This document shows positions 1,444-28,393 of a DNA stretch of 64,000 bases, one piece after another. Source of the stretch: OCS155 cluster bacterium AG-349-E07 (GTDB taxonomy: Bacteria; Actinomycetota; Acidimicrobiia; Actinomarinales; Actinomarinaceae); the NCBI GenBank assembly GCA_003281085.1, contig QCCZ01000001.1, forward strand, positions 251,433-315,432, written 5' to 3'. How positions within the stretch are numbered: position 1 is the stretch's first letter; each line of letters opens with the position of its first letter. A program made the translations under genes and the position numbers. The notes under the pieces are model-generated. The model searched no databases, had not been told where the DNA came from, and was given only the letters and a program-made list of their open reading frames with translations.

Positions 1444-3534
1444 TTATAGTTTTCTTGATGAATTCAAAACTACTGAAATGCTTGATAGTGCCATGGCTAA
1501 AGCTGCTAAATTTGGAGTAATTGCCCCATACACAGCCAATGGAATCATTGAGGTGTTGTAAACAAAAGCAAGGAATAGATTTTGATAAATTCTACTTTTA
1601 GATTTTTTTGATAATTTAAAAATTTCAGAAATTGTATCTAAACCGCCCTTGTGAATTAAAATATCACCAGCTACTTGTGCTATTTGACTACTACTAGAGG
1701 TAGTTATACCAATATCCGCTTGTTTTATTGAAGGGGAATCATTTACTCCATCTCCAACATAAATAATTTTTTCTTCTAGTTGTTTATTTTTAATAAAGTC
1801 TAACTTTTCTTCTGGAGATTTATTTGAATGATATTTGTCCACCCCAATACTTCTAGCAAACTTTTCAACATTTACTTCTTTATCTCCAGAGAGAATAATT
1901 ATTTCTTTTTCATCTTTTAGTATATTTAAGAAATTTGACGATACGGATACCTCTTCTTCTAAGTAGAGATCAATTTTTTGCTCGTCAATTTTAACAATGA
2001 TTGAAGACTCGTTAGAGTCTTCATTTTTTTCAATTAAAACTTTTTTCTCATCAACTATACCTTGTATCCCTAAGCCGGGAACTTCCTTGACATTATCAGC
2101 TTTAAGCAATTTCAAATCTCGTAATTCTGCTTCATAAACAATACTTCTTGCAATCGGATGCTGAGAATAGTTTTCAAGACTTGCAATAATTTGTAAAATT
2201 GTATTTTCCGTTAGAGATGTATTATTGTCGATCTTTGATATTTTAAAAATACCAGAAGAAAGGGTACCTGTTTTATCAAAAATAAGAGTATTTATATCAC
2301 CAAATTTCTGCAAAATATCAAAATTTTTGAATAAGTATCCCTGTTTTTTACTGAGAGTTGCAGTCTTAAACAAAACTATTGGAGTTGCTAATCCTAATGC
2401 ACAAGGACATGCAATCACCAAAACTGCTATTGAATTTTTTAAGGCATCTAATAATGTGAAATCGCTAATAAAGAATCTAAATAGGAAAGTTAGAAGACTA
2501 ATAAAAAGAACAACTGGAACGAAGTATTGAGTTACTTTGTCCAATGATTTTTGAATCTCTGGTTTAGTTGCTTGAGCCGTTCTAATTAATTCTTCAATTA
2601 TGTTGTAGGTAGATTTTTGATAAGACTCTTGGACAGAGACCTTTAATGCACCATCTAAATTTATACTTCCACCTACAACTAAGTCCCCAGGATTTTTAAC
2701 TAGAGGAATTGACTCTCCAGTTAATAAACTTTCATCAACAGTTGTTGAACCTTCTAAAACAACACCATCAACAGGAATAATCTCTCCAGGGCTTACTTTA
2801 AATAAATCACCAATTGTAACTTCTTTAATAGGTACTTCAAGATGCTCCCCACCTCTTTCCACAATTAAAGTTTTAGGCATTCTGCTTTTTATTGATTCAG
2901 ATTCATTTACGGATTCCTCTATAACCTTATCTTCTATTGCTTTACCAATTAAGATAAATGAAACTATGAAAGCTCCGGTATCTAGGAACATTTTATTATT
3001 TGTGATTGATAAATCAGAGCTAAGAACAGTGCTTGGTAACAGTGAAATAATAAGCGCACTCAAGCTACCGATTGAAATTAGAGTATCCATATTAAAATCA
3101 AGAAATTTAATTTTTTTAAAAGCAGAAATATGAAAATTTCTACCAAGTATCAAGATAACAAAAGAGCCTATTGCATAAGATAAGATATCTAGCCCAGCTT
3201 CAAATGTAAATCTGAGAATGTAAGTAAGAAACAATGAAAATAAAGGTATTAAAAATTTAAATCTAACTTTACTTCCTGAACTAAGGCTGTCTGCTTCTTT
3301 TGCCTTATAGCCAATAGTGTTTACTTTTTTAATTAAATTATCAACATCAAATTCGTCATTATTTTTAATGTCAACAATTGCAGACTTTAAAGGAAAGCTT
3401 ACAGATACGTCTAAGACATCTTCTTGTTTTGAAATTACTCGTTCTATCCGTGCAGCACATGCAGCACATGTCATGCCTTCGATGTCTAAATTTAAAGTAT
3501 TATTCTGACTGGACAACTGTGTAGCCTTGTTCAT
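1444..3534 (-). CDS. copA: Cu(I)-translocating P1B-type ATPase
   Basis: GMTCAAC HMA domain, TGES, CPCALGLATP, DKTGT, HP, GDGVND, YN and MxxSS Cu ligands; true start may be TTG at 3516. Confidence 0.93.
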   Translation of the reverse strand: MNKATQLSSQNNTLNLDIEGMTCAACAARIERVISKQEDVLDVSVSFPLKSAIVDIKNNDEFDVDNLIKKVNTIGYKAKEADSLSSGSKVRFKFLIPLFSLFLTYILRFTFEAGLDILSYAIGSFVILILGRNFHISAFKKIKFLDFNMDTLISIGSLSALIISLLPSTVLSSDLSITNNKMFLDTGAFIVSFILIGKAIEDKVIEESVNESESIKSRMPKTLIVERGGEHLEVPIKEVTIGDLFKVSPGEIIPVDGVVLEGSTTVDESLLTGESIPLVKNPGDLVVGGSINLDGALKVSVQESYQKSTYNIIEELIRTAQATKPEIQKSLDKVTQYFVPVVLFISLLTFLFRFFISDFTLLDALKNSIAVLVIACPCALGLATPIVLFKTATLSKKQGYLFKNFDILQKFGDINTLIFDKTGTLSSGIFKISKIDNNTSLTENTILQIIASLENYSQHPIARSIVYEAELRDLKLLKADNVKEVPGLGIQGIVDEKKVLIEKNEDSNESSIIVKIDEQKIDLYLEEEVSVSSNFLNILKDEKEIIILSGDKEVNVEKFARSIGVDKYHSNKSPEEKLDFIKNKQLEEKIIYVGDGVNDSPSIKQADIGITTSSSSQIAQVAGDILIHKGGLDTISEIFKLSKKSKSRIYQNLFLAFVYNTSMIPLAVYGAITPNLAALAMALSSISVVLNSSRKL

Positions 3535-3709
3535 CTAACAGTTGAGAAACATTCATCATGTCTAAATCAGAAGATGAGATAACTTCAACTGATTTTTTCT
3601 CAATATCAACTGAAACGCTTTCTATTGATTCAACATTATTTAATGTAGATTCAATCGTATCCTTACAATGACCACAACTGATTTCAGGAACTGTAAATAC
3701 AACATTCAT
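3500..3709 (-). CDS. copZ: Copper chaperone (HMA domain)
   Basis: VPEISCGHC motif, about 69 aa, overlaps copA start; ATG at 3709 preferred over the track start at 3718. Confidence 0.88.
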   Translation of the reverse strand: MNVVFTVPEISCGHCKDTIESTLNNVESIESVSVDIEKKSVEVISSSDLDMMNVSQLLDEQGYTVVQSE

Positions 3710-3721
3710 AATTATCAATAT

Positions 3722-3740
3722 TAATACTCGGCGGGCTATA
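3722..3740. promoter_or_regulatory. Possible CsoR-type copper operator upstream of copZ
   Basis: TAATACTCGGCGGGCTATA: GC-rich core flanked by ATAC/CTAT in AT-rich DNA just upstream of copZ; imperfect match to the CsoR TAC..GC-tract..GTA pattern. Confidence 0.3.
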
Positions 3741-3741
3741 A

Positions 3742-3769
3742 ATAAGCCCCTAATTTCTTAGGGGCTTAT
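3742..3769 (-). terminator. Intrinsic terminator-like hairpin
   Basis: Perfect 12-bp stem ATAAGCCCCTAA-TTTC-TTAGGGGCTTAT downstream of ORF 3814..4008; U-tail is short. Confidence 0.7.
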
Positions 3770-3813
3770 AAGAAATCTCTTGGGGGAGATTCCGTTAGGG
3801 GGGTCTTTAAAAC
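3742..3813 (-). ncRNA. Candidate C-rich (6C-like) small RNA or structured 3' UTR
   Basis: Minus strand: GACCCCCCTAAC, then hairpin GGAATCTC-CCCCAA-GAGATTTC, then the terminator hairpin. Confidence 0.4.
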
Positions 3814-4008
3814 TTAAGCAGTTTCTTGTAGAATTCTGCCTCTAACTCTAGGATATTTCACAGGAGCATGATTAAAGCAGTGATCTCTCTTGTTATAAAT
3901 ACTTAATTGAGTACTACAAGATTCATCTTTGCACACTCTGCCCTGGTCAAAACTCTTTGATGGCCTAATTCCGCCCTTTATTTGACTCGCTTTTAATCCG
4001 TCTGTCAT
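3814..4008 (-). CDS. Small basic putative zinc-finger protein (C-x4-C-x12-C-x2-H), paralog of 28029..28229
   Basis: AAGGA SD; 32 of the first 57 residues identical, ungapped, to the second copy. Confidence 0.85.
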   Translation of the reverse strand: MTDGLKASQIKGGIRPSKSFDQGRVCKDESCSTQLSIYNKRDHCFNHAPVKYPRVRGRILQETA

Positions 4009-4026: not shown

Positions 4027-4044
4027 TTGTGAATATATTCACAA
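4027..4044. promoter_or_regulatory. Rex operator-type palindrome (also fits CRP/GlxR spacing)
   Basis: Perfect TTGTGAA-TATA-TTCACAA matching Rex consensus TTGTGAA-N4-TTCACAA, between a TATGTT -10 and the SD of ORF 3814..4008. Confidence 0.75.
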
Positions 4045-4073: not shown

Positions 4074-5972
4074 TTAAATAAGCAAGTTCTTTTGAAATAA
4101 AAAAGCTTCATCATCCCACTTTCTACCTAGGAAGCTTTGCACCATATTTTCTGCAGGAATAGTACCTCCGGGCTTGAGAATCTTATTTTTGTAATCAACA
4201 CCTACTGAATTTGAAAGCACTCCTTCATTTTCAAATCTGCTAAACAAGTCATCACCAATAATTTCTGCCCATAAGTATCCATAGTAAGCAGCATCATATC
4301 CACCAAGTAAATGACCAAATGCTGCCAAATGATTTGTATCTTTGGGGTAGGTGATATTAGTTACTAACTGAGAAGCTTGTTCGATTTGTAAAAGGTCATC
4401 ATTGAAATTCTCACCATGCATATGTTGATCAGCAAGTCCAAAAGATACTTGCCTTAATGCCAACAAACTAACTCCAATGTTTTTTGATTCGTTTAGCTTT
4501 TTACATAGTTGTTCAGACAATGGTTCTGAAGTTTCAATATGTTTTGAAATCCTTTTTAAACACTCTACTTTCCAAACCCAGTGCTCCATAATCTGACTAG
4601 GAGCTTCCACAAAATCCCACTCACAATTTGCACCCACAAACCTTGTATATTTTGATTTACCAATTCCATTATGTAAGACATGACCAAATTCATGAAACAA
4701 GGTTTCAACTTCATCAAAAGTCATAAGCCCATCTCCTGTATTAGGATTTGGAAAATTTGCGACCATTGAACATACTGGTAGCTCTTGCCTTTCGGAACCA
4801 CCAGAAGAAATATCAAATACTGCTGCATGGGTAAACTTTCCTTCTCTTGGATAGAGGTCTAAATAAAAGTAAGCTAGTTGTTCACCATTTTTTTCCCACA
4901 AAGACCAAAGTTCAACATCTTCATGCCACGCAGTTTCATTTGATTCTGACTTAATTTCTAAATCAAAAACTTCTTCACAAACTTTGAACATTTCATTTTT
5001 TACATCATGAATAAAAAAATATTTTTTTAGTTCACTATTTTCTATATTGCTAGTTTTGCTTCTTTTTGATGAAATAAAGTATCGAATATCCCATGGTGAA
5101 ATATCATTAATTTCAATATCATCTATTACAAGGTCTTTTTTTTCTTTCTCAGCAGCTTTTTGCAACTTAGGGATTAAATCTTTATACATAGCATCAACAT
5201 TTTTTGGATTTTTTGCCATTCTGTTTTGCAATCTATATTCAGCCCATGTTTTAAATCCAAACAATTTAGATTTTTCATTTCTTAGCAAAACAGCTTCTTT
5301 AAGGATTGGAATATTATCTTCTACAGCCCGATTATTAAAAGCTTTCCAAACCATTTCTCTTGTGTTCCTGACATTACAGTTTTCAGATACTGCATTTACA
5401 TCAGGATATGCCATTGTAATAATAAATTTTTCTCCATCTTTTTTTAAGTTGTTAAGTTCATTTTTGCTTAAACCGCTTAATTCAACTTCTGAAAATTTAA
5501 GCTCTGTTTTATCTTTTGCTATATTTTCTGAAAAAGCGATACCAAGCTCTATAAGCTTTTTATCAATCTCTATTAACCTATGTCTGCTTTTATCTGACAA
5601 ACCATGACCAGCATTTTTAAAATCTATGCCTAAATCTTTGTGAAACTCAATACTCTCTTTATCTGCATCTGAAATATCAATTTCATTATATTTTTTGTAA
5701 AGATCATCATCATTAAATATTTCAAGTGCAAAATTTTGTATTTTTGAATCTGCTTCATTTCCAAAATCTCTGATCTTTTTTTCAGGGTGTACATCTCCAA
5801 GAAAAGCAATCCTTCCTGAAACGTCATAAACTGTACTTTCTAAATCATTAAAATCATTTAAATTAACGTTTGTTGATGACTTTATGTTTTCAACTAATTT
5901 TTTACATTCTTCTAAAGTGCTATCCAAATCGTTATTCAAGCTCTCTAAGTTTGCCTCAGAATAGTTAAACAT
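4074..5972 (-). CDS. M3 family metallo-oligopeptidase (thimet oligopeptidase/PrlC-like)
   Basis: LDLYPREGK, FHEFGH zinc motif, DFVEAPSQ, GYDAAYYGYLWAE; GGAGG SD. Confidence 0.93.
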   Translation of the reverse strand: MFNYSEANLESLNNDLDSTLEECKKLVENIKSSTNVNLNDFNDLESTVYDVSGRIAFLGDVHPEKKIRDFGNEADSKIQNFALEIFNDDDLYKKYNEIDISDADKESIEFHKDLGIDFKNAGHGLSDKSRHRLIEIDKKLIELGIAFSENIAKDKTELKFSEVELSGLSKNELNNLKKDGEKFIITMAYPDVNAVSENCNVRNTREMVWKAFNNRAVEDNIPILKEAVLLRNEKSKLFGFKTWAEYRLQNRMAKNPKNVDAMYKDLIPKLQKAAEKEKKDLVIDDIEINDISPWDIRYFISSKRSKTSNIENSELKKYFFIHDVKNEMFKVCEEVFDLEIKSESNETAWHEDVELWSLWEKNGEQLAYFYLDLYPREGKFTHAAVFDISSGGSERQELPVCSMVANFPNPNTGDGLMTFDEVETLFHEFGHVLHNGIGKSKYTRFVGANCEWDFVEAPSQIMEHWVWKVECLKRISKHIETSEPLSEQLCKKLNESKNIGVSLLALRQVSFGLADQHMHGENFNDDLLQIEQASQLVTNITYPKDTNHLAAFGHLLGGYDAAYYGYLWAEIIGDDLFSRFENEGVLSNSVGVDYKNKILKPGGTIPAENMVQSFLGRKWDDEAFLFQKNLLI

Positions 5973-11668: not shown

Positions 11669-12940
11669 TTAAATAATTATATTTTCTGTTCTCTCTGGTC
11701 CAACAGAGATAAACGTAATGGGTACTTCTATAAAGGTTTCAATTGCCTTTATATAACTTTGAGCATTATCTGGTAAATCTTCAAAAGACTTAACTGCTGA
11801 AATATCATCCATCCAACCATCAAATGTTTCATAAACTGGCTCAGCTGAATTTAAGATTTTTTGATCATATGGATAGTCAGTGATAACTTCGCCGTTGTTT
11901 TTGTAACCTACACAAAGTTTTATTTCTTCAAGGCCTGAAAGCACATCAAGTTTAGTTATAAAAAGTTCAGTTAAAGAGTTAACTCTTGCTGAGTATTTTA
12001 GAGAGATTAAATCAAGCCATCCACATCTTCTCCTTCTACCAGTAACAACTCCAAACTCTGCTCCCTTTTCTATTAAATAGTCGCCAATTTTGTTTTTTTG
12101 CTCTGTAATAAAAGGACCACTACCAACACGAGAAATATATGCTTTTGTTACACCAACAATTTTATCTAGATTTTTAGGACCTATGCCTGAGCCAATAGCT
12201 GCATTGCCAGAAGAAGTATTTGAGCTTGTTACAAAAGGATACGTTCCATGATCAATGTCTAATAAAGTTCCTTGCGCTCCCTCGAATAAAATTGTTTTTT
12301 TATTTTTTATTGCATTTGCGATCAATAAAGATGTATCTGCTACATGACTAGTTACAATATCTTTGTAGGCACTGAACTCGTCAATAATCTCATCAACTAT
12401 TATTGGAGGCTGGTTATAAATTTTTGTAAGAGTTAGGTTTACATCCTCTACATTATTTCTAACTTTTGTTTCTAAATTTGTTTTATCTAATAGATCTTGA
12501 ATTCTTATTCCTTTTCTTTGAATTTTATCGGCATAACACGGTCCAATCCCTTTTTTTGTTGTTCCGATTTTGTTTTCTCCTAAACTTTCTTCTATTAACT
12601 CATCGAGTAATTTATGATATGGCATTATTACATGTGCATTTGGAGAAATCACTAATTTATCAGTATTAATATTTTTTTTGTTTAACATTTTAAGTTCTTC
12701 TTTTAAGAACCCAAGATCAACAACACAACCCGAGCCAATTACCGGGGTACAATCAGGATAAAGCACTCCTGATGGTGTTAAGGATAATGCAATTTTGTCA
12801 TCTCCAACCACAATTGTATGACCAGCATTGTTTCCACCTTGAAATCTGACGACAAAATCGGCTGTTGAAGCAAAAAAATCTGTGACTTTACCCTTACCTT
12901 CATCTCCCCACTGGGCTCCGAGAACTACGGTAGTGGACAA
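11669..12940 (-). CDS. purA: Adenylosuccinate synthetase
   Basis: GAQWGDEGKGK, GGNNAGHT, GTYPFVTSS, TGRRRRCGWLD. Confidence 0.98.
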   Translation of the reverse strand: MSTTVVLGAQWGDEGKGKVTDFFASTADFVVRFQGGNNAGHTIVVGDDKIALSLTPSGVLYPDCTPVIGSGCVVDLGFLKEELKMLNKKNINTDKLVISPNAHVIMPYHKLLDELIEESLGENKIGTTKKGIGPCYADKIQRKGIRIQDLLDKTNLETKVRNNVEDVNLTLTKIYNQPPIIVDEIIDEFSAYKDIVTSHVADTSLLIANAIKNKKTILFEGAQGTLLDIDHGTYPFVTSSNTSSGNAAIGSGIGPKNLDKIVGVTKAYISRVGSGPFITEQKNKIGDYLIEKGAEFGVVTGRRRRCGWLDLISLKYSARVNSLTELFITKLDVLSGLEEIKLCVGYKNNGEVITDYPYDQKILNSAEPVYETFDGWMDDISAVKSFEDLPDNAQSYIKAIETFIEVPITFISVGPERTENIII

Positions 12941-13140
12941 TTTTTCTCCTTAGATACAACATAAAATGATAACCTAAGTTTTTACTAATAAGAACAAGTT
13001 TCTTAGCGAATTTAATCTAAATTGCAAATTTTTTGAATTTTTAAGGTTTTTTTCATTGATACAAAATCCTAACTATATTAGATTTATATACATACGGCCT
13101 CTAAAGAGGCTGTCTACTTTTAATTAAAAGGAGATAAACA

Positions 13141-14220
13141 TTGAATAAAAAAGCAATTGTTTTTCTTTTAGTATTTGCAATGGTAATCGTCGCTTGTGGA
13201 GACACAACCGAAGAAGCTGCTGTTGAAGCTACTGAAGAAGAACATGACCACGAAGGCGAGTCAACGCTTGAACAAGTTCAAGAAAGAGGCTTCCTTAAGT
13301 GCGGTGTTAGCACAGGTGCAACTGGATTCACTGAAGTAGGGGACGACGGTTCTTATTCAGGATTCGACGTTGACTACTGTTATGCAGTTGCTGCTGCTAT
13401 CTTCGGTGATTACAGTAAAGTTGAATTTAAACAACTTACTGCAGCTGAAAGATTTACAGCACTTAGCGCTGGAGAAGTTGATGTGTTGATAAGAAACACA
13501 ACTTGGACTCAAAGCCGAGACACAGAGCTTGGTAACGATTTTGGACCAACAACTTACTTTGACGGTCAGCAATTAATGGGAAGAGTTTCTGATGGACTTT
13601 CATCATCTTCAACTCTTGCTGATATTGACGGACTAAGAGTATGTACAAATGCTGGTACAACCACAGAAAAGAATATTACAGAAGGTGCTGGACTTGTAGG
13701 AGCTACAATTGAGCTCGTTACAGTTGAAGCATTCTCAGAGGCAATTGACAAGTTCATTGCTGGTGAATGTGATATTGTTACAACTGACGGTTCAGGATTA
13801 GTTGGTAGAAGAGCAGTCAATGACGCTCTTAATGACTGGGCAATTTTCCCACAATCACCAATTTCAAAAGAACCATTAGGTCCAACATACAGATCAAATG
13901 ATAGCCAATGGGCTGACATCATTAACTGGACTGTTTATGCAACAATCATTGCAGATGAGTACGGAGTTACAAGAGCTAACATCGATTCATTTGACTATGA
14001 TGCTGCACCAGAAATGGGTAGATTATTTGGTAAGAATGACGGAGAGCTTCAAACAAAGATGGGTCTTAGTGCCGATGCGTATTACAACGTTATAAAACAA
14101 ATTGGTAACTACGATGAAATCTTCTCAAGAAACCTAAATCCATTAGGTCTCTATAGAGAAGGTGGAGCTAACGCTCGCTGGACAGAAGGCGGATTAGTTT
14201 ACGCACCACCAGCAAGGTAA
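13141..14220 (+). CDS. aapJ: General L-amino acid ABC transporter substrate-binding lipoprotein (AapJ/BztA)
   Basis: Lipobox VIVAC, LKCGVS, GFDVDYC, RNTTWT, ISKEPLGP, GGLVYAPP; AGGAG SD. Confidence 0.93.
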   Translation: MNKKAIVFLLVFAMVIVACGDTTEEAAVEATEEEHDHEGESTLEQVQERGFLKCGVSTGATGFTEVGDDGSYSGFDVDYCYAVAAAIFGDYSKVEFKQLTAAERFTALSAGEVDVLIRNTTWTQSRDTELGNDFGPTTYFDGQQLMGRVSDGLSSSSTLADIDGLRVCTNAGTTTEKNITEGAGLVGATIELVTVEAFSEAIDKFIAGECDIVTTDGSGLVGRRAVNDALNDWAIFPQSPISKEPLGPTYRSNDSQWADIINWTVYATIIADEYGVTRANIDSFDYDAAPEMGRLFGKNDGELQTKMGLSADAYYNVIKQIGNYDEIFSRNLNPLGLYREGGANARWTEGGLVYAPPAR

Positions 14221-14239
14221 TTTTTACCTATTTATAATT

Positions 14240-14270
14240 AGTAAAAGGGGCTTTTAGCCCCTTTTACTTT
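14240..14270 (+). terminator. Strong hairpin/terminator between aapJ and aapQ
   Basis: 13-bp stem AGTAAAAGGGGCT-TTT-AGCCCCTTTTACT followed by TT. Confidence 0.8.
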
Positions 14271-14303
14271 GAATAAGAAAAATATTTCTGATAGGATTTA
14301 TTT

Positions 14304-16103
14304 ATGAAAAATGCACTTAAGACGTTATCGTTTTTTAGGAATGTGGTATTTCTTAAGTGGGCTTCACAAATAGTATTTTTAGTAGGTCTTCTATATATAA
14401 TCTGGAGCTATATCCAAAATGCAGTCGTAAATCTTGAACAAACTAATATCGCTTTTTCATGGGGATGGCTAGGAGAAACGCCAGGAGTTTCAATTGCAGA
14501 AGGAATGTATACTCTCCCTAATTCAGGTCGACAGATGATCCAAGTCGGTATGCTCAATATGCTAAGGGTCACAGTTACAGGTATATTTGCAGCAACATTT
14601 TTGGGTACATTTCTTGGTATTGCTCGTTTATCAAAAAACTATATAGTAGAAAAAACTTCAACAGGTTTGCTAGAAGTTGTTCGTAATGTTCCTCTGTTAG
14701 TACAAATTTTCTTTTTCCAAGCTTTTGTATTGACTTTTCCTAGATTAGAAGTCTTTGATGTAGGAACTTATAATCTTCATGTAAGTGCAAAAGGTATTGC
14801 CTTTCCTTGGTTTAACAGACAACCTACAGCATATTTATTCTGGGTTTATTTGATAGCCATTTTAATTTTGGCTAACAAAATTTATAAGTGGAGAGTACAA
14901 ATTCTTGAAAGAGAGGGTAGAGAAACAAGGCCTTTTCTTTGGTCATTTGGTATCTTTTTTGGATTATTAGTCGCTGGCTGGTATGGAGGATATCGAGTCA
15001 TGGGAGTTATAGGATTCTTAGCCGGATATATTTCAACAGGAGTTGACCTTTTGCCTGCAATTTTTTATCAAATACTCTTCTCTTCAATTGCAGTATTTAT
15101 TGGTTATAGATCTACAAAGAAGTTTATAGATAGCAAAAAATCAGAAGAAGCCCAGGGAATTTACAGTGATGATGATTACTTTAAAATCATATTAAATGTC
15201 ATAGTTGTATTGTTAGTCGTTGTCTTAATGTTTTCCTCTGTAGGGCTGGGACTTTCTAACTTTCTAGTTGGTGATGAACTTGTTTTTAAAGCAGATTGGG
15301 GCGTTCCTCAATTTTTTGACGGTGTTAATAATAAACTATATTGGAACCCAGAGGCAAAAATTGTATTAGATGCACAGCTGGATGGTATGAAGAGAGCAGA
15401 TATTATAGATTGGATTGCTGTACCCGGCACAGAAGTAACAAAAGGTGATGTAATAGCAAGAGCTACAGCAAAAGACTTAAAGGGTGATTTGAATCAAGAG
15501 ATATCCATTTATGCAAAATATACAGGTGTAATCGAAGAGGTTTTTGTATCTAAGGGAGACACTGTAAAAATAAACGAAAAAACATACGATATTCGAGTAA
15601 CAGATAGTAAACCATTAGAACTGTCAAGACCAAGAATAGAGCAAATTGGTACTACTAAGTTTAAAAAATATGCTGATGGGTTTGGTAAGAGTCTCTCGGT
15701 AGGATATTTTGCTATTTGGCTTGGAGTTGTTTTGTATACAGCAATATTCATTTCTGAAGTTGTGAGAGCTGGAATAATGGCAGTTTCAAAAGGACAGTCT
15801 GAAGCAGGTCTTTCTCTTGGGCTAGGCCGAGGTGCACTACTAAGGTTAATAGTCTTACCACAGGCAATCAGGGTAATGCTTCCACCTATGGGTAATCAGT
15901 ATCTAAACCTTGCAAAGAACACATCTTTAGGTATAGCTGTTGCATATCCAGAAATTGTTGCTGTAGGGCAAACCCTTTACAACCAAGAAGGACAAACCTT
16001 GCCAGTATTTTTAATCTGGATGGCGTTTTACAGTACAGTAAGCTTGACTATTTCAACAATAATTAATTATTACAATAGAAAAATGAAAATAGTGGAGAGG
16101 TAA
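14304..16103 (+). CDS. aapQ: Amino acid ABC permease (AapQ/BztB-like), enlarged, with an inserted lipoyl/biotinyl-like domain
   Basis: GIARLS, RNVPLLVQ, EVVRAGI..VSKGQSEA, PPMGNQYLNLAKNTSL; insertion at about 15357-15599. Confidence 0.88.
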   Translation: MKNALKTLSFFRNVVFLKWASQIVFLVGLLYIIWSYIQNAVVNLEQTNIAFSWGWLGETPGVSIAEGMYTLPNSGRQMIQVGMLNMLRVTVTGIFAATFLGTFLGIARLSKNYIVEKTSTGLLEVVRNVPLLVQIFFFQAFVLTFPRLEVFDVGTYNLHVSAKGIAFPWFNRQPTAYLFWVYLIAILILANKIYKWRVQILEREGRETRPFLWSFGIFFGLLVAGWYGGYRVMGVIGFLAGYISTGVDLLPAIFYQILFSSIAVFIGYRSTKKFIDSKKSEEAQGIYSDDDYFKIILNVIVVLLVVVLMFSSVGLGLSNFLVGDELVFKADWGVPQFFDGVNNKLYWNPEAKIVLDAQLDGMKRADIIDWIAVPGTEVTKGDVIARATAKDLKGDLNQEISIYAKYTGVIEEVFVSKGDTVKINEKTYDIRVTDSKPLELSRPRIEQIGTTKFKKYADGFGKSLSVGYFAIWLGVVLYTAIFISEVVRAGIMAVSKGQSEAGLSLGLGRGALLRLIVLPQAIRVMLPPMGNQYLNLAKNTSLGIAVAYPEIVAVGQTLYNQEGQTLPVFLIWMAFYSTVSLTISTIINYYNRKMKIVER

Positions 16104-17905
16104 TGGTTGACTTAATTAAAAAGAACGCAAAGTCATTACAGGAGAGTTTATTTTCGTCTGTCGGATCTGCAGCTTTAACTATTGCTACAACGTATCTTGT
16201 AATTAACTTTTTCAGAGGAATGCTTGGTTTTGCATTAACGTCAGATAAAGATTGGCTGGCTGTATTAAACAATATGCAGCTATACATGGTTCAAGCATAT
16301 CCAGAGGAAGATTTTATTAGAGTCTGGTTATCAGTTGGCCTTACTTTTGTCCTTGCAGGATTATCAATTGGCATTTGGAGAAGTGATGATAGAGTAAAAA
16401 GTTCTCAGGTATTTAATTCCTTTTTTAAAGGCGGACTAGGTGTACTTTTCTTTACAATAATTGCTCCAACAAATTCAAGCTTTATGGGAAATGATGGATC
16501 GGTTATAACTGAAGAAGTCTTTTCTATGGAAACAAGGTTAGGAATATTAATTCCAGTTGCTATTTTCTGTGTAATATTTTTTAGTATCCGATTTATAAAT
16601 ATTAACTTTACTGTAAATAGCTCTGACATGGTTTTCTTTTATTTATTCATCCCTGTTGCACTTCTTTGGTTTATCAAGCTACCCACTATTCAACTGGATC
16701 AAAATAATGAAAGAATTATTCCTGACCCTGTAATGCCAATAGCTGATACCACAAAGATTCCTTGGACAGTCATCTTTGTATCATTCTTGGCTAGCTATTT
16801 TATTGGAATGTATCTTAAAAATATAAAAAGTATTAAGTCAATCATGTCTTTATCATGGTTTTTATTACCTCTTTTAATTTTTTCTTGGATTTTCAAAAAA
16901 CCACAAATTGACATGTCAGTCGTGCTTGGCAGTGACCTTCCTATATTCGGAGCTTTCTTACTTTGGGGTTTTTTAGTAATTACTTTTGTTAATAACTCTA
17001 TATTTAAAAAATATTACTCAACTTACTTAGGACTTACTTTCCTATTAACACTTGTTGGTGTCTTTTCTGGTTTACCGATGTTGGCTAAAACTTGCTTACT
17101 CTTGATAGCATTATTCTCGGTCGTGGTTCCAGCTGTATCAACTTCATCGCAGGGTAAAAGAAGTCTTTTAATCGTGTGGGCAGTTGCATTAGTTACCCTT
17201 ACCTTTTTACTAAGAGGGGGAGCATCAGATACTGGCATAGTCGTTCCGGGTTCAAGTATTTTTGGAGGTTTTTCTTTAACATGGTTACTGGCCATATTTG
17301 GAACATATGTTTCTTTTCCACTCGGAGTCTTATTGGCACTAGGGAGAAACTCAAAACTACCAATAATTAGAATTGTCTGTACTGGAATTATTGAATTAAC
17401 TAGGTCTGTGCCATATATCACATGGTTATTTTTTGCAAGCGTCACCTTAGCAGTATTTCTACCCGCAGGAGTTGAGTTCAACTTAATAGTTAGAGTGTTG
17501 ATGGTGACAGCTTTTTTCAGTGGTGCTTACTTTGCAGAAAATATTAGAGGTGGTCTCCAATCTATTCCAAAAGGACAATATGAAGCGGCTGATGCTATAG
17601 GAATGAGCCCATTTCAAAAGATTTCTCTAATTATTATGCCACAGGCTCTAAGAGCAGTTATACCTACTCTTGTTAGCAGTGCTATTACAGCTTTTAAAGA
17701 CTCAAGTCTTGTGACAATTATTGGATTATTTGATTTCCTCACTATTGGAAAAACTGTTATCGGAAATCAATCAATACCTGTAAACTTTGTTGGTCATGAC
17801 AGAGAGAATTTAATTTTTGTAGCAATTGTATATTGGATATTTACTTTTACGCTTTCTAGAAGAAGCATGAAAGTTGAAAAGAAGTTAGGATTAGGAGAGA
17901 GGTAA
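16103..17905 (+). CDS. aapM: Amino acid ABC permease (AapM/BztC-like) with extra TM segments
   Basis: FPLGVLLALGR, AENIRGGLQSIPKGQYEAA, FKDSSLV. Confidence 0.88.
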   Translation: MVDLIKKNAKSLQESLFSSVGSAALTIATTYLVINFFRGMLGFALTSDKDWLAVLNNMQLYMVQAYPEEDFIRVWLSVGLTFVLAGLSIGIWRSDDRVKSSQVFNSFFKGGLGVLFFTIIAPTNSSFMGNDGSVITEEVFSMETRLGILIPVAIFCVIFFSIRFININFTVNSSDMVFFYLFIPVALLWFIKLPTIQLDQNNERIIPDPVMPIADTTKIPWTVIFVSFLASYFIGMYLKNIKSIKSIMSLSWFLLPLLIFSWIFKKPQIDMSVVLGSDLPIFGAFLLWGFLVITFVNNSIFKKYYSTYLGLTFLLTLVGVFSGLPMLAKTCLLLIALFSVVVPAVSTSSQGKRSLLIVWAVALVTLTFLLRGGASDTGIVVPGSSIFGGFSLTWLLAIFGTYVSFPLGVLLALGRNSKLPIIRIVCTGIIELTRSVPYITWLFFASVTLAVFLPAGVEFNLIVRVLMVTAFFSGAYFAENIRGGLQSIPKGQYEAADAIGMSPFQKISLIIMPQALRAVIPTLVSSAITAFKDSSLVTIIGLFDFLTIGKTVIGNQSIPVNFVGHDRENLIFVAIVYWIFTFTLSRRSMKVEKKLGLGER

Positions 17906-17911
17906 TATCGT

Positions 17912-21065: not shown

Positions 21066-21176
21066 AGTTTCATATTAAGGTGTCTTATTAAAATATCCAA
21101 AAGTTAGGCAATTAAAAATAGAAATAAAAGATAAACTTAATAATATAATTTATTTTTTATTTAAGAGGAGCTCTCA

Positions 21177-24007: not shown

Positions 24008-24019
24008 TAAAAATTTATA

Positions 24020-24238: not shown

Positions 24239-24248
24239 CTAGCTTATC

Positions 24249-24638
24249 TTAATTTGTTTTTTTAATTGATTTGTTAGTTTTTTTAACAATTTCATTTTTA
24301 TAACTTTTGTGTATTTCTCGTTCTTTATTTCTTGAATCAACTTTTTGAGTAGACATTTCATCTTCTAAAGAGATTATTTTACTCTGTAATTCTTCTATTT
24401 TGTCTTTCATTTCATATATGATTTTTATTCCATCTAAATTTATACCTCTCTGAGAAAGATTTTGAATCTGAATTAATTTATCTATGTCTTCCTGTGAATA
24501 TCTCCTTGTTCCTCCACCTGTTCTAAAAGGTTTAATTAAACCTTTTTGTTCGTATGTTCTTATTGTTTGTTGATGGATTCCTGAAAGAGTTGATGCTACG
24601 GAAATAAAATATATTGCTTTCGAGTCTTCATTATTCAT
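24249..24638 (-). CDS. hspR: Heat-shock repressor HspR (MerR family)
   Basis: YFISVASTLSGIHQQTIRTYE, RTGGGTRRYS, GINLDGIK; follows dnaJ; ATG 24638 overlapping the dnaJ stop preferred over the track start 24671. Confidence 0.92.
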   Translation of the reverse strand: MNNEDSKAIYFISVASTLSGIHQQTIRTYEQKGLIKPFRTGGGTRRYSQEDIDKLIQIQNLSQRGINLDGIKIIYEMKDKIEELQSKIISLEDEMSTQKVDSRNKEREIHKSYKNEIVKKTNKSIKKTN

Positions 24639-25716
24639 ACAAATAATCCCTCGGAGAGTCTCCAGACTCAAATTGATCTCTATAGTTTTCCAAATGTTTT
24701 TTTGCAGATCTTGATAAATTTGTTGGAGGGGTTATGAAAACTTTTATAAATAAATCTCCTGGCCTTCTGCCTTGCGGAGCAATTCCCTCACCTTTTATTT
24801 TAAAAGTTTTTCCACTTGGAGTACCCGCAGGAATTTTTAATGTTACCGATTTTTTAAGCGTTGGTATCTTTACACTTGCACCAAGAGCTGCCTCTGTAAA
24901 TAGCAAAGGAACTTCTAGAATAAGATCGCTATTGTTTCTTTTAAAGAATTTGTGTGGTTCAACGGCAACTTGAACTAATAAATCTCCATCTGGTGCGCCT
25001 GCATCTCCAGGACCGCCTCTTCCTCGTAATCTAATAACTGTACCATTATCTACTCCGGCAGGGACTTTTACTTTTATTGACTCATTCTCTATTACTGAGC
25101 CAGAACTTCTACAAGTTTTACAGGCTTTATCAATAATATTTCCCTGCCCTTTGCAAGCTGTACATGTTTGAGCAAAAGAAAAAAATCCTTGATTTGAAGC
25201 TGTCTGTCCACTTCCATTGCAAATGTTACATCTATGGAAAGCTTCTCCTTTATCTGCTCCTGTTCCTTTACAGTAAGAACATACTACTTCCTTTCTGAGA
25301 GGAACTACACTTTCTACTCCTGAAGCCGCATCATTAAAAGATATATTAATATTTGTTTGATAAGTCTGGCCCTTTCTTCTTCCACCAGCACCTCCGAATC
25401 CAAATATATCTCCGAGATTTCCAAATAAATCACCGAAATCCTCTACATTAAACCCTTGTCCGCCAAATCCTCCAAACCCTGAAGCACCCATCGCACGAAC
25501 CTGGTCATACTCTTGTCTTTTCTTTTCATCACCGAGAACCGAGCTAGCTTCTGAAATTTCTTTGAATTTTTTTTCAGCTTCAGTATCTCCCGGGTTTAAG
25601 TCCGGATGATTTTCTCTTGCAAGCTTCTTATACGCTTTTTTTATTTCTTCAGTACTTGCCTCTTTTGTTACGCCCAGGGTGGCGTAAAAGTCTTTGTCTA
25701 ACCAGTCTCTACTCAC
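24631..25716 (-). CDS. dnaJ: Chaperone DnaJ
   Basis: J-domain HPD, G/F region, four CxxCxGxG-type repeats. Confidence 0.97.
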   Translation of the reverse strand: MSRDWLDKDFYATLGVTKEASTEEIKKAYKKLARENHPDLNPGDTEAEKKFKEISEASSVLGDEKKRQEYDQVRAMGASGFGGFGGQGFNVEDFGDLFGNLGDIFGFGGAGGRRKGQTYQTNINISFNDAASGVESVVPLRKEVVCSYCKGTGADKGEAFHRCNICNGSGQTASNQGFFSFAQTCTACKGQGNIIDKACKTCRSSGSVIENESIKVKVPAGVDNGTVIRLRGRGGPGDAGAPDGDLLVQVAVEPHKFFKRNNSDLILEVPLLFTEAALGASVKIPTLKKSVTLKIPAGTPSGKTFKIKGEGIAPQGRRPGDLFIKVFITPPTNLSRSAKKHLENYRDQFESGDSPRDYLYE

Positions 25717-26200
25717 TTTTCACTTTAACCATTGCAGGGCGAATCAAACTACCCTGAAATAGATATCCTTTGCGTAGAACCGCATCGATTATCTGCGAAT
25801 CACCTTCACCAGAATGTTCAACAGCTTCATGTAGAGATGGATCAAAATTTTCTCCAATTTTCCCTACTTCTTCAACTTGTAAGTCCTGGAGAACTGAGGT
25901 AAGTATACTATTTAGTGCTTCTACTTCTTTAGCTACTTTTTCCTGTGCCATAGCCATTTCAAAATTATCAATGAGTGGAAAAATAGCATTAACGAAGTAA
26001 GCTATTGAAGCAGCTCCAATATTTTCTTTCTCTTTTTCGGCTCTTTTTTTGTAATTGTCAAAATCAGCAGCAAGTCTTAAATAGTCGTCTTTTATTTTTT
26101 CGTATTGTGACAGAGAGACAGTTGATTCTTCAGATTCTTCATTAACTGCTTTATCTGAAGTTTTGTCTACTTCATCAATAGAGGGTTCTTCCTTATTCAT
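25709..26200 (-). CDS. grpE: Nucleotide exchange factor GrpE
   Basis: [31 protein letters not shown]. Confidence 0.96.
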
Positions 26201-28001
26201 CCTCTATAACTTCACCTTCGACTACATCTTCTGAACCATCATCAGGTGAGTCTGGTGCATCGTTTTGGGTTTCAGCGTAAAGTTTTTCTGCAAAAGACTG
26301 ACTTGCTTTAGCTAACTCATCAATTCCATTTTTTAGATCATCTACAGACAAATCTTCGTTTTCAAGAAGTTTTTTTAATTTATCATTCGCATCAGTGATT
26401 GCTGCAACTTCTTCTTCAGTAGCTTTATCTTTATTTTCATCGAGCATTTTTTCAGTTGAAGTAACCATACCTTCTGCCATATTTCTTGTTTCAACAAGCT
26501 CTTTCTTTTTAGCATCTTCATTGGCATGTTGTTCAGCATCTTTTATCATTCTGTCGATTTCATCATCTTCAAGTGCAGTTCCGCCAGTAATAGTTATAGC
26601 TTGTTCCTTCCCAGTACCAAGGTCTTTGGCATTAACATTTACGATTCCATTGGCATCAATATCAAACGTTACTTCAATTTGTGGGGTCCCAGCCATCGCA
26701 GCAGGAATATCCGTAAGGGTGAATCTACCTAGGGATTTATTACCAGCTGCCACTTCCCTTTCCCCTTGCAAGATATGAATTTCAACTTGAGTTTGATTAT
26801 TTTCTGCTGTGCTGAAAACCTCTGATCGCTTGGTAGGAATAGTTGTATTTCTCTCAATCATTTTTGTCATAATTCCACCTTTTGTTTCAACACCTAAAGT
26901 AAGAGGAGTAACGTCTAACAAAAGAACATCTTTTACATCACCTTTAAGGACACCAGCTTGAATAGCTGCTCCTGAGGCTACAACTTCGTCCGGGTTAACT
27001 CCCTTATGTGGATCTTTTCCGGTTAAAGTTTTTACAAGTTGTTGAACAGATGGCATACGTGTTGAGCCACCAACTAAAATAATGTGATCAATATCAGAAT
27101 ATTGCATACCTGCATCAGACAATGCGTTCTCTACAGGTTCTTTAGTTCGTTCAACTAAGTCAGCTGTTATTTTTTCAAATTCTGATCTACTTAATTTTTC
27201 AAGCAAGTGTTGAGGCCCAGCATCATTGGCGGTAATAAAAGGTAAATTTATTTCTGTCTCACTTGTTGAAGATAGTTCAATTTTGGCTTTTTCAGCACCT
27301 TCTTGAATTCTTTGAACTGCCATTTTATCTTTTGACAAATCTATCCCTGTGGATGATTTGAATTTATCTATCAACCAGTCCATAACTCGTTGATCCCAAT
27401 CATCCCCACCCAGTTTTGAGTCACCAGAAGTAGATTTAACTTCGAACACACCTTCTGAGATTTCAAGTATTGAAACATCAAAAGTACCTCCACCTAAGTC
27501 AAATACTAAAATTTTTTGATCTTCATTATTTTCTAGACCATAAGCTAATGATGCAGCTGTTGGTTCATTAATTATTCTCAGGACATTCAGACCAGCAATT
27601 TGTCCAGCTTCCTTTGTTGCTTGCCTTTCTGCATCATTAAAATAGGCTGGTACTGTAATTACGGCCTCGGTAACATCATCTCCCAAGTAAGCTTCAGCGT
27701 CTCGCTTTAGTTTTTGTAAAATTCGTGCAGAAATCTCTTGAGGTGTATATTCTTTATCTTCAAATTTTTCTTTCCAATCAGTCCCAATATGTCTTTTGAT
27801 AGACCTTACTGTATTGTCGGGATTGGTGATGGCCTGTCTTTTTGCAAGCTCTCCTACAAGCACTTCTTCAGATTTAAATGCAACAATAGAAGGGGTTGTT
27901 CTATTTCCTTCTGCATTTGCTATAACAGAAGGCTCTCCACCCTCTAAAACTGCTACAACACTGTTTGTTGTTCCCAAATCTATTCCCACAGCTTTACCCA
28001 T
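26193..28001 (-). CDS. dnaK: Chaperone DnaK
   Basis: [27 protein letters not shown]. Confidence 0.99.
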
Positions 28002-28028: not shown

Positions 28029-28229
28029 TTAAATTGGTTCTTGTTCTCTTGGCAAATGACCTCTTACCCTTGGATAGGAGATAGGAGCATGCAGAAAACA
28101 AAATTTCTTTTTGTTGTAAACACTAATTACGGTCTCACAAGTTTCAAATGCGCAAACTCTACCAGTAGTGTATTTTTTTGATCTTCTAACACCTGGTTTA
28201 ACTTGTGATGCTGTCAATGTTCCACTCAT
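28029..28229 (-). CDS. Small basic putative zinc-finger protein (C-x4-C-x12-C-x2-H), first gene of the dnaK operon; paralog of 3814..4008
   Basis: GRVC-x4-C-x-T-xx-S-x-YNK-xxx-CF-x-HAP-xx-YPRVRG shared with the paralog; AGGAAGG SD; 27 bp upstream of dnaK. Confidence 0.85.
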   Translation of the reverse strand: MSGTLTASQVKPGVRRSKKYTTGRVCAFETCETVISVYNKKKFCFLHAPISYPRVRGHLPREQEPI

Positions 28230-28265: not shown

Positions 28266-28324
28266 AATCTAAGTATATTTACTTAGATTTGTTATTAATA
28301 TATCATATTTGCAATTTAATGCAA
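28266..28324 (-). promoter_or_regulatory. dnaK operon promoter with a HAIR-like inverted repeat (candidate HspR operator)
   Basis: Minus strand TTGCAT-16 nt-(TGA)TATATT, followed by perfect 10-bp IR AATCTAAGTA-N4-TACTTAGATT at 28266-28289. Confidence 0.6.
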
Positions 28325-28393
28325 AAAATTTAATAAAAAAGATAAAAAATAAGCAATTTTAGTAATTATTAAACCACCTGATAATATTGAATA

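Follow-up and report, generated by a model that had tools for sequence, protein, structure and literature searches.

The window analysed here, a stretch of 64,000 nucleotides from OCS155 cluster bacterium AG-349-E07, encodes two small CCCH proteins, ORF A and ORF B. Comparison of the loci shows that in this genus the two paralogs carry different predicted stress switches, with ORF A placed under a Rex-type operator and ORF B heading a dnaK-grpE-dnaJ-hspR operon. We consider it very probable that the genes, the family to which they belong and their wiring are, taken together, real. A genome of about 1 Mb with very few regulators and paralogs keeps two or three copies of this uncatalogued zinc-finger protein of about 65 residues, in a tiny Rex regulon and at the head of the only recognisable HspR-type operon. 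Identifying the partner of the protein would fill a gap in the heat, thiol and redox stress response of actinobacteria outside the well-studied Actinomycetia.

The paralogs and their family

The two genes of the window are the following.

3814..4008, minus strand: ORF A, a basic CCCH microprotein of 64 aa and the Rex (redox) copy (ORF and BLASTP; dN/dS over 12 orthologs)
28029..28229, minus strand: ORF B, a CCCH microprotein of 66 aa and gene 1 of the dnaK operon (ORF and BLASTP; dN/dS; RNA-library contigs)

Aligned without gaps, ORF A and ORF B are identical at 32 of their first 57 residues and at 33 of 62 (BLASTP E 4e-26). In both, the motif C-x4-C-x12-C-x2-H begins at residue 26, and YPRVRG is common to the two. 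The coordinates, lengths, 32/57 gapless identity, CCCH motif and YPRVRG of an earlier, sequence-only reading of this DNA were all reproduced, as were the Shine-Dalgarno-like stretches it had placed ahead of each ORF, namely AAAGGA 5' of ORF A and GGAAGG 5' of ORF B. Both proteins are basic, with 12 K+R against 6 D+E and a pI of 9.7 in ORF A, and 12 K+R against 4 D+E and a pI of 10.0 in ORF B. A third paralog of 61 aa, located on contig C24 (L003:1489-1674, minus strand), brings the number of copies in the genome to three, with lengths of 61-66 residues. Purifying selection, whose absence the sequence-only reading had named as an argument against itself, is strong in the genus, the median dN/dS being 0.026 for ORF A (12 orthologs) and 0.046 for ORF B (18 loci), and both copies are retained in 32 of the 36 genomes of the genus. 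RNA-library contigs from all four metatranscriptome runs (4/4, from four studies) cover ORF B, and two of them bridge the dnaK/ORF B junction, namely X1 record 7 (27540-28097) and X8 record 32 (27783-28209). This comparison spanned the dnaK region only, and contig-based depth cannot rank genes, so it gives no expression levels.

A search of a set of 1.84 billion proteins returned 296 representative proteins at E <= 1e-3, distributed over Actinomycetota and two viral contigs. Although the family is present in a quarter of the sampled Actinomycetota genomes, including 77 of 151 Acidimicrobiia genomes, it is without name, structure or function. Across 65 sequences, five positions never vary (R24, C31, Y38, C44 and H47) and five more hardly do (C26, S36, N39, R56 and G57); surface-type residues and both arms are conserved as well. 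As read from the aligned sequences, the architecture is one Cys3-His metal site, an N-terminal basic arm (R..K.Y..GR-V-C) and a C-terminal P-R-x-R-G tail; the metal is presumably zinc. Long forms of the family carry a second site, C2HC, and short forms have one site.

Neither Pfam nor NCBIfam holds a model for the family, the window proteins match 0 Pfam families at E <= 10, and a literature search found no paper on it, in agreement with the earlier statement that no named family could be recognised. A search for longer or fused forms gave only two proteins, neither with a Pfam domain, and nothing in PHROGs matched the three paralogs or the three ORFs next to the C24 copy. Protein P0146 contains the C-x4-C-x12-C-x2-H module four times in tandem, followed by an HNH endonuclease domain, and is the only HNH fusion among the 150 matches listed. 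The finger region of P0178 aligns with the non-catalytic part of the phage HNH family phrog_1271. The AF2 model (pLDDT 86) is almost without secondary structure, and searches with it returned 0 matches at E <= 10 in Foldseek and 0 of 48,161 chains at Z >= 2 in VIA-align, such tiny irregular folds being hard to match. The long-form model (pLDDT 59) was too poor for a fold search, and the long-form profile gave chance-level matches only against PDB and Pfam.

Predicted operators and gene neighbourhoods

The ORF A locus is composed of the following elements.

4027..4044: Rex-type operator TTGTGAA-TATA-TTCACAA, a perfect match ending 18 nt 5' of the ORF A start codon
4009..4073, minus strand: gap separating the M3 peptidase gene from ORF A, which contains the SD AAAGGA and, just 5' of the Rex box, a likely promoter (ortholog upstream alignment)
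3744..3767, minus strand: G+C-rich 10-bp hairpin AAGCCCCTAA/TTAGGGGCTT in the ORF A-copZ gap, a probable ORF A terminator
3500..3718, minus strand: gene for a copZ-like heavy-metal-associated protein, 3' of ORF A (HMA, E 2.2e-11)
1444..3534, minus strand: copA-like P-type ATPase gene (N-terminal metal-binding motif and likeness to the Pfam-checked L036 ortholog)
4074..5972, minus strand: M3 family peptidase gene, the conserved neighbour 5' of ORF A (Peptidase_M3, E 1.9e-112)

The element at 4027-4044, TTGTGAATATATTCACAA, is a perfect 18-mer palindrome situated in the promoter region, and it matches perfectly the Rex consensus TTGTGAAW4TTCACAA as given in PMC2883068. We placed the ORF A promoter by visual inspection of aligned upstream sequences from the orthologs; in this placement the box lies at the predicted transcription start. 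A consensus scan did not call a promoter. Three perfect Rex-type boxes were observed in the genome where 0.013 would be expected; over 200 shuffles the average was 0.01 box and no shuffle had more than one, so the palindrome is not a chance match. The other two boxes precede nuoA (nuoA-nuoB) and a whiB-like gene, both of them published kinds of Rex target: according to PMC5355995, nuoA1-N1 and wblE of S. avermitilis are under Rex repression. The genome encodes rex, with Put_DNA-bind_N and CoA_binding domains, and this gene and the nuoA box are 1.4 kb apart. Perfect Rex boxes are present in every one of the 36 genomes of the genus, two to five per genome and typically three, with 0 matches in the reversed control, and the box is identical at the 12 ORF A orthologs examined (12/12), where the flanks have diverged. 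With this perfect, conserved box and its companions at nuoA and the whiB-like gene, the earlier proposal of a Rex-type palindromic operator at ORF A stands, and as a prediction from sequence we regard the operator as well supported. The box also nests a Crp-type pattern, TGTGA-N6-TCACA, which could in principle be recognised by a Crp-family regulator. Since such a regulator is encoded in the genome, which protein binds the ORF A box is something we infer. Besides the strong hairpin downstream of ORF A there is a weaker one, around 3772-3793; an equivalent of the strong hairpin occurs in 5 of the 12 orthologous loci, and the remaining 7/12 have none, with a short spacer.

The ORF B locus contains the heat-shock genes listed below.

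28266..28289: palindrome AATCTAAGTA-N4-TACTTAGATT, core TCTAAGT-N6-ACTTAGA at 28268-28287, the presumed HspR operator
28297..28325, minus strand: promoter-like site of ORF B/dnaK, with -35 TTTGCA, a 17-nt spacer and a TG-extended -10 TATATT (9/12 consensus matches)
26193-28001, minus strand: dnaK, in an operon with ORF B
25709-26200, minus strand: grpE, in the same operon
24631-25716, minus strand: dnaJ, in the same operon
24249-24671, minus strand: hspR, of MerR type, the last gene of the operon

The dnaK-grpE-dnaJ-hspR block spans 24249..28001 on the minus strand and is led by ORF B. The palindrome is situated directly 3' of the predicted promoter, itself a consensus match only, and starts 8 nt after the -10, and we take it to overlap the promoter. 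This lineage-specific palindrome is the sole perfect site in the genome and hence not a chance match. An inverted repeat at the promoter of this hspR-ending operon is conserved in all 18 ORF B loci, with perfect arms in 15/18 and one change in 3/18. The sequence-only reading had called the operator at dnaK HAIR-like. A conserved palindrome is indeed present at the promoter, but its likeness to HAIR is loose, with 4/7 bases per arm and a spacer of 6 rather than 7 bases relative to the consensus CTTGAGT-N7-ACTCAAG given in PMC6102357. In this genome, which is 85% complete, no promoter region contained a canonical HAIR with <= 3 mismatches, nor was there a second promoter-proximal copy of the ORF B palindrome, and thus no wider HspR-type regulon was seen. 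We presume from its position that the palindrome is an HspR operator, and the predicted heat-shock wiring of ORF B is supported by the operon position, the unique conserved palindrome and its placement after the -10.

Outside the genus, the CCCH genes are differently placed. None of 20 loci in other Acidimicrobiia carries a Rex box within 4 mismatches, which makes the split between a Rex and a heat-shock regulon genus-specific. The claimed division between redox and heat-shock control therefore holds within the genus (Rex box at ORF A, dnaK operon at ORF B) and not beyond it (0/20 Rex boxes). Likewise, the conservation of operators and contexts on which the sequence-only reading had staked its case was found inside the genus (12/12 for ORF A, 18/18 for ORF B), but the wiring is not kept at the 20 loci elsewhere. 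There, CCCH genes are situated after an M3 peptidase gene and ahead of cueR-copZA, after sigH-rsrA (3/20 loci, with an ECF sigma gene nearby in 4 more) or after lnt. The order M3 peptidase, CCCH gene, copZ-copA is present at 12/12 loci in the genus and at 4 loci of another family of the class, where a MerR/CueR-type regulator belonging to the copper genes follows the CCCH gene; that regulator is missing in the genus, and CsoR was not found. The dnaK operon, the sigH-rsrA operon and the metallopeptidase neighbours are contexts that suit a role in proteostasis no less than one in transcription.

Proposed function and its alternatives

If the wiring operates as predicted, ORF A would be de-repressed when NADH/NAD+ rises, jointly with nuo and the whiB-like gene, and ORF B would be de-repressed by heat or unfolded protein, provided that its palindrome is an HspR site. 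The weakest step concerns the protein itself, which we tentatively read as a stress-induced, single-finger module binding nucleic acid, a reading to which we give somewhat less than an even chance. Its target would most likely be DNA, or DNA within the transcription machinery; the zinc knuckle, together with arms rich in Arg, Tyr and Asn, would hold on to the backbone or a groove, and synthesis under stress could then adjust transcription or protect nucleic acid. The indications of function obtained here all point to nucleic acid: they are the tandem modules and HNH domain of P0146, the alignment of P0178 with phrog_1271, a marginal match, the sole one to a solved structure, with zinc site 1 of the DNA-binding SBP domain, and the basic character and conservation of surface-type residues and arms. 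Contrary points are that the SBP match is not significant (E 0.11), that P0146 is a single fusion among the 150 matches listed, and that the fold searches were empty.

The main rival to the nucleic-acid-binding reading, which we judge unlikely, is a zinc-thiol switch like Ruc or Hsp33, in which oxidation or heat would free the zinc and turn the protein into a holdase or a DnaK helper handing clients to DnaK/DnaJ/GrpE, with the extra CCCH copies filling the role of Ruc in lineages that lost it. PMC7448276 describes M. tuberculosis Ruc as a small, HrcA-repressed and SigH-induced zinc protein that co-purifies with DnaK, and places Ruc genes of other phyla in dnaK/dnaJ/grpE loci. CCCH genes show wiring of this kind, at the head of the dnaK operon here and near sigH-rsrA or ECF sigma genes (3/20 loci and 4 more). 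Moreover, Zn_ribbon_8, the Ruc-type domain, exceeds its cut-off in 93 of 151 Acidimicrobiia and in 0/36 genomes of the genus, 0/7 of f10 and 0/5 of f12, and in every genome of these last three groups the CCCH family is present, mostly as 2-3 copies. In one example of the domain, L068:1408-1620, the CxxC pairs occupy residues 8/11 and 29/32, which is the Ruc arrangement, and we take Ruc to belong to PF09723, the matching cysteine positions being our sole support. The complementarity rests, however, on three lineages at most, and f2 (15/15) and f15 (5/5) have both proteins. Control of ORF A by Rex implies a reducing rather than an oxidising signal, and the occurrence in viral contigs and with an HNH endonuclease fits a chaperone poorly. 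Ruc acts via a variable disordered C-terminal half, whereas the CCCH protein is conserved over its whole 60 residues, arms included, which suggests one specific partner.

A second rival involves RNA polymerase. An analogue of the WhiB-like proteins would dock, through protein-protein contact, on the polymerase or the principal sigma factor and alter promoter use in stress, while its P-R-x-R-G tail would contact DNA much as an AT-hook does, a resemblance and no more; we think this somewhat less probable still than the Ruc-like holdase. The similar size, the metal-cysteine centre, the restriction to Actinomycetota and viral contigs and the stress wiring all favour it, as do the shared Rex operator type and box-to-ATG distance (18-19 nt) of ORF A and the true whiB-like gene, the failure to find RbpA in any of 151 Acidimicrobiia, and the listing of wblE as a Rex target in Streptomyces in PMC5355995. 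On the other hand, the sequence shows no kinship with Wbl, the genome retains three true WhiB genes, and CCCH and RbpA are not complementary in the phylum, f41 having both and many families neither. A complex prediction of ORF B (with alignment), residues 105-351 of the principal sigma factor and Zn gave a score of 0.00 and no tool verdict, and weighs neither way. Simple replacement of RbpA was rejected: its domain (PF13397) has no match in the window proteins, the genome or the 151 genomes of the class (0/151), but CCCH is present in 77/151, and besides f41 with both there are large families with neither. That the protein is a stress-made ribosome- or RNA-associated factor resembling the small basic zinc-knuckle ribosomal proteins seems improbable. 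Zinc-binding ribosomal proteins are small, very basic and have little secondary structure, much like the confident CCCH model, but no likeness to any ribosomal protein family was found, the family is missing from about half of the class, and its genes lie outside ribosomal gene clusters. Least probable is metal handling, in which the protein, tied to the adjacent copZ-copA genes, would buffer, sense or chaperone zinc or copper. The gene order kept at 12/12 genus loci and 4 loci elsewhere speaks for it, together with the missing CueR-type regulator in the genus and the failure to find CsoR; against it, the copper genes of the other family have their own MerR/CueR-type regulator, a strong terminator hairpin separates the CCCH gene from copZ in 5/12 loci, most family members lie in contexts without metal genes, and metal buffering would make no use of the conserved basic arms.

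A bolder synthesis, which we put forward as a long shot, would make the CCCH family a zinc-based, phage-carried counterpart of the WhiB-like proteins that acts on promoter DNA or RNA polymerase, with a finger akin to that of SBP and EsV-1-7 proteins and with extra copies put in stress operons where Ruc was lost. If true, CCCH proteins would be a second class of small metal-cysteine factors, restricted to Actinomycetota and re-programming transcription upon a change in redox state, thiol oxidation or heat, and the SBP/EsV-1-7 finger, seen in eukaryotes and giant viruses, would have its bacterial relative in their single finger.

Comparison with known systems

SBP proteins occur in plants and green algae, and their two zinc sites have the spacings C-x4-C-x16-C-x2-H and C-x2-C-x3-H-x11-C. 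Zinc site 1 of the SBP box (SPL5, PDB 8j49 and 8pfc) resembles the CCCH finger in its Cys-Cys-Cys-His order, with C-x4-C followed by C-x2-H, and in having L-S and an aromatic residue between the ligand pairs and basic surroundings; the second site of the CCCH long forms, C2HC, also orders its ligands as SBP site 2 does. The spacer measures 12 residues in CCCH versus 16 in SBP, however, and the His spacing of the second site differs. A 65-member profile run against PDB sequences gave SPL5 as its best match at E 0.11, no Pfam SBP match was obtained, and the long-form profile does not find SBP; the window proteins, as short forms, have a single site. A C-x4-C...C-x2-H module of the same kind is present in EsV-1-7 (PF19114), the CxC6 of KDZ transposases (PF18721) and the WRKY19 finger (PF24906), none of which has, to our knowledge, a characterised function. 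Weak matches to these models were distributed among the 65 members (CxC6 18/65, EsV_1_7_cys 8/65, Zf_WRKY19 6/65), all below the gathering cut-offs, with best E values of 6.3e-4 for EsV_1_7_cys, 0.01 for CxC6 and 0.089 for Zf_WRKY19, and the window proteins gave no match. In the Atlas, the nearest named clusters were small bacterial EsV_1_7_cys proteins (score 0.77), which we treat as a lead only.

Wbl proteins hold a 4-Cys Fe-S cluster. Like CCCH proteins, they are small metal-cysteine proteins restricted to Actinomycetota and phages and wired to stress, but CCCH proteins have no Whib (PF02467) match and conserve three Cys and one His rather than four Cys. Ruc (Rv0991c), as described in PMC7448276, is likewise a small protein with zinc and cysteines; it is controlled by a heat-shock repressor and SigH and tied to DnaK either physically or through genomic position. 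It combines a CxxC...CxxC zinc ribbon with a variable disordered tail, in contrast to the C-x4-C-x12-C-x2-H motif and conserved arms and tails of CCCH, in which no PF09723 match and no sequence relation to Ruc was found. Regarding the regulons, the texts of the papers cited here, supplementary regulon tables aside, describe no small zinc-finger gene under Rex or HspR. The wiring itself follows known lines: ORF B heads a dnaK-grpE-dnaJ-hspR operon, as in Streptomyces, and the ORF A box equals the Rex (ROP) sequence published in PMC2883068, alongside the nuo and wbl targets reported in PMC5355995.

The paralogs and their protein family

A search across the whole assembly (954,793 bases, 24 contigs, 85% complete, 32.6% G+C) identified three members of the CCCH zinc-finger family:

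3814..4008, minus strand: ORF A, the copy with the Rex-type operator, 64 aa
28029..28229, minus strand: ORF B, the copy of the dnaK operon, 66 aa
contig C24, L003:1489-1674, minus strand: third paralog, 61 aa

As the sequence-only reading had claimed, ORF A and ORF B are alike, having identical residues at 32 of the first 57 positions and at 33 of 62, without gaps (BLASTP E 4e-26), and both carry C-x4-C-x12-C-x2-H from residue 26 together with YPRVRG. Their basic character was equally evident, each protein containing 12 Lys plus Arg, with a pI of 9.7 for ORF A and 10.0 for ORF B. A third copy was otherwise seen in only one genome of the genus (G069). On contig C24 (2.5 kb), ORFs of 109, 58, and at least 339 aa lie downstream of the third paralog, and these had zero Pfam or PHROGs matches.

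ORF A and ORF B are genuine genes. The 30 loci obtained from the genus comprised 12 orthologs of ORF A and 18 of ORF B, the window's own locus being among the latter. The pairwise median dN/dS was 0.026 for ORF A (52/55 pairs usable) and 0.046 for ORF B (149/153), with about half saturation of synonymous sites; purifying selection on both copies is strong, as the sequence-only reading required. Residue substitutions were concentrated in four positions between the first and second Cys. The family was present in all 36 genus genomes, and the two main copies are usually spaced 21-24 kb apart on the same contig. The dnaK stretch was carried by 20 runs from 9 studies, including 13 RNA-recorded runs that contained half or more of the words sampled from it. 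Contigs from four RNA runs (four studies), placed on window positions 12001-32000, covered ORF B, and the dnaK/ORF B junction was spanned by a contig of run X1 (27540-28097, 0 differences) and one of run X8 (27783-28209, 2 differences); being assembled contigs, these document presence and continuity with dnaK rather than expression level or transcript ends. A variant among populations at 28215, in Leu5 of ORF B, was synonymous. Additionally, an ABC-type substrate-binding lipoprotein gene (13141-14220, plus strand) had very deep contigs in these four marine RNA runs, a depth that gives no basis for ranking genes, and RNA-run contigs were seemingly cut at a short repeat (21110-21165).

No Pfam or NCBIfam model matched ORF A or ORF B, even at E 10, in keeping with the sequence-only reading, which had recognized no named family, and literature searching found no publication on the family. 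A phmmer search with ORF B against 1.84 billion representative proteins returned 296 matches at E <= 1e-3, mostly of 60-80 residues. In a 65-member alignment (consensus R..K.Y..GRVC....C.T.LS.YN....C..H.P...PR.RG), R24, C31, Y38, C44, and H47 were invariant, while C26, S36, N39, R56, and G57 were almost invariant. Structure prediction with Foldseek and a survey of copy number across Acidimicrobiia had been proposed as checks. The AlphaFold2 model from this alignment reached a pLDDT of 86 with regular secondary structure nearly absent, and comparison with solved structures (Foldseek, VIA-align) revealed nothing similar. The weak matches were all fingers of the C-x4-C...C-x2-H type, one being zinc site 1 of the SBP domain, which binds DNA (E 0.11), and below-threshold Pfam matches among members comprised CxC6 (18/65), EsV_1_7_cys (8/65), and Zf_WRKY19 (6/65). 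Of the 151 Acidimicrobiia sampled, 77 yielded the family, all-or-none per taxonomic family, with at least two matches in 32 of the 36 genus genomes; across sampled Actinomycetota it occurred in 104/401, or 93/390 without 11 positive genomes flagged unpublished. Other forms include a long version seen repeatedly (103-148 aa), which adds a second invariant site, C-x2-C...H...C (its structure model was too low in quality for use), and a 54-aa viral version without the PRxRG tail, closing a lysis module on two viral contigs.

Predicted operators of the two main copies

The following predicted operator sequences were located:

4027-4044: Rex-type operator TTGTGAATATATTCACAA, ending 18 nt before ORF A, perfect consensus match
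C6:34957-34974 (contig C6, outside the window): Rex box 13 nt upstream of nuoA-nuoB, 1.4 kb from the rex gene
C3:57157-57174 (contig C3, outside the window): Rex box 19 nt upstream of a 92-aa WhiB-family gene
28268-28287: palindrome TCTAAGT-N6-ACTTAGA, upstream of ORF B, the sole perfect copy in the genome

The genome contains exactly three perfect matches to the Rex site consensus TTGTGAAW4TTCACAA (PMC2883068), against 0.013 expected by base composition and a mean of 0.01 (maximum 1) in 200 block shuffles. According to PMC5355995, Rex of Streptomyces avermitilis has nuoA1-N1 and wblE among the targets that it represses directly. Because the other two boxes (loci L057 and L071) mark known Rex targets, the ORF A box can credibly be assigned to Rex as a predicted operator, which agrees with the operator type first proposed for it. 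The box and its TATA spacer were unchanged at 12/12 ORF A orthologs while the flanks diverged freely, and every test of Rex operator membership that was run came out in its favor. As a caveat to this assignment, a Crp-family regulator is encoded in the genome as well, and the usual Crp-type site nests inside a Rex box. Each of the 36 genus genomes had 2-5 perfect boxes, and a reversed control pattern had 0 matches in them; given so few boxes, the Rex regulon of the genus appears minimal.

The ORF B palindrome begins 8 nt past a TG-extended -10 element and is followed by ORF B, dnaK, grpE, dnaJ, and a MerR-type hspR, ORF B and dnaK being separated by 27 nt. Its arms were perfect at 15/18 ORF B loci and had a single change at 3/18. 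Compared with the HAIR consensus given in PMC6102357 (CTTGAGT-N7-ACTCAAG), it matches 4/7 bases per arm and has a spacer one base shorter. What makes the palindrome HAIR-like is thus mainly where it lies and not its sequence: as an HspR site, the palindrome agreed in its context, an operon ending in hspR, but not in its consensus.

Gene contexts outside the genus and likely history

For comparison, 20 loci were hand-picked from the matching genomes, covering 13 Acidimicrobiia outside the genus, with long contigs being preferred, and neighbors were annotated by clustering followed by a Pfam check of cluster representatives. The family member (X) occurred in these recurrent contexts:

L036, L044, L051, L053 (one taxonomic family): M3 peptidase, X, copZ/copA, PAC2
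L039, L042, L043: ECF sigma and ZAS anti-sigma factor immediately upstream of X
L045, L048, L049, L054: ECF sigma at most two genes upstream; Zincin_2, tilS, and hpt downstream of X
L040, L046, L047, L050: lnt upstream of X

In addition to the four copper-linked loci, a fifth (L037) had copA nearby in a different orientation, and the remaining four loci had other contexts. None of the 20 contained a Rex-like box with up to four mismatches; the differential wiring proposed for the copies thus holds within the genus but is lineage-specific.

In a maximum-likelihood tree (24 sequences, 65 columns), ORF A, ORF B, the C24 copy, and the viral version clustered with support of 89/85, which falls under the tool's star threshold; the viral version was the nearest neighbor of the C24 copy, and the copper-linked copies were nearest to ORF A. 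The alignment is short, and a common A+T-driven composition could help make the grouping. With these caveats, the likeliest history is that ORF A represents the ancestral copy, beside peptidase and copper genes, and ORF B a genus-specific duplicate placed ahead of dnaK. L036 and L044 were confirmed to have a MerR/CueR-type regulator gene separating X from copZ; the genus lacks this gene, a search for CsoR did not find it, and no copper regulator was recognizable beside copZA. The gap from ORF A to copZ (3719-3813) holds two G+C-rich hairpins (the genome has 33% G+C); a strong hairpin was present in the window and at 5/12 loci, while 7/12 had a short spacer alone.

Elsewhere in the genome, a 124-aa ORF (L066:1100-1474, minus strand, contig C4) follows the sole ECF-type sigma factor and precedes secE and nusG; it has H-x3-C-x2-C and a hydrophobic C-terminal stretch, is missed by Pfam zf-HC2, and probably encodes a ZAS anti-sigma factor anchored in the membrane. 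The principal sigma factor gene (351 aa; about 62,892 onward, plus strand; L065:892-1947) crosses the window end, and the window's sole Rfam match is a selenocysteine tRNA gene (61298-61388, minus strand; RF01852, 75 bits). The RbpA domain was found in 0/151 sampled Acidimicrobiia and only 52/401 sampled Actinomycetota; those of family f41 matched the profile at positions of about 19-76 only and so are core-only forms.

Candidate functions and known systems

We tentatively favor a single zinc finger binding nucleic acid, a reading to which we give somewhat less than even probability. The only informative fusion, the single protein P0146, has the module four times in tandem ahead of an HNH endonuclease domain, the place in which homing endonucleases carry DNA-binding modules, and in another member the stretch with the finger could be aligned with a phage HNH family, outside its catalytic part. 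The same reading is favored because the sole characterized relative, a marginal one, is a DNA-binding finger, because the protein is very basic, and because conservation extends over the two arms and over residues of surface type (Arg, Tyr, Asn, Gly), a pattern as would be expected of one conserved macromolecular partner.

The main rival, a zinc-thiol holdase resembling Ruc, the redox-regulated zinc-ribbon chaperone of M. tuberculosis, is rather improbable. Ruc is described in PMC7448276 as a small, HrcA-repressed, SigH-induced, DnaK-bound zinc protein occurring at dnaK loci in other phyla, a wiring strikingly similar to that found here. Moreover, the Ruc-type Zn_ribbon_8 domain exceeded its cut-off in 93/151 Acidimicrobiia but in 0/36 genus, 0/7 family f10, and 0/5 family f12 genomes, all of which carry the CCCH protein, mostly in 2-3 copies. 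Against this rival, the complementarity is based on at most three lineages, and families f2 and f15 own both proteins. Ruc also works via a variable disordered tail, whereas the CCCH protein shows conservation along its whole length; control by Rex points to reducing rather than oxidizing conditions, and the viral and nuclease occurrences are ill-suited to a chaperone. A WhiB-like (Wbl) role in docking to RNA polymerase, suggested by the operator type and geometry common to ORF A and the true whiB-like gene, seems more doubtful still, and a role on the ribosome or in metal handling ranks lower again.

The earlier interpretation as a basic, putatively Zn-binding stress factor was supported in part: the family is unnamed, both copies are under purifying selection, and their wiring differs. 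When membership in the SBP, EsV-1-7/CxC6/WRKY19, Wbl, Ruc, and RbpA systems was considered, the two proteins fell outside every one. The family is an uncatalogued form, standing alone in bacteria and phages, of a finger type already known, recruited lineage-specifically by known stress regulons, and is of moderate-to-high relevance to work on streamlined genomes of marine bacteria and on how actinobacteria regulate their stress responses.
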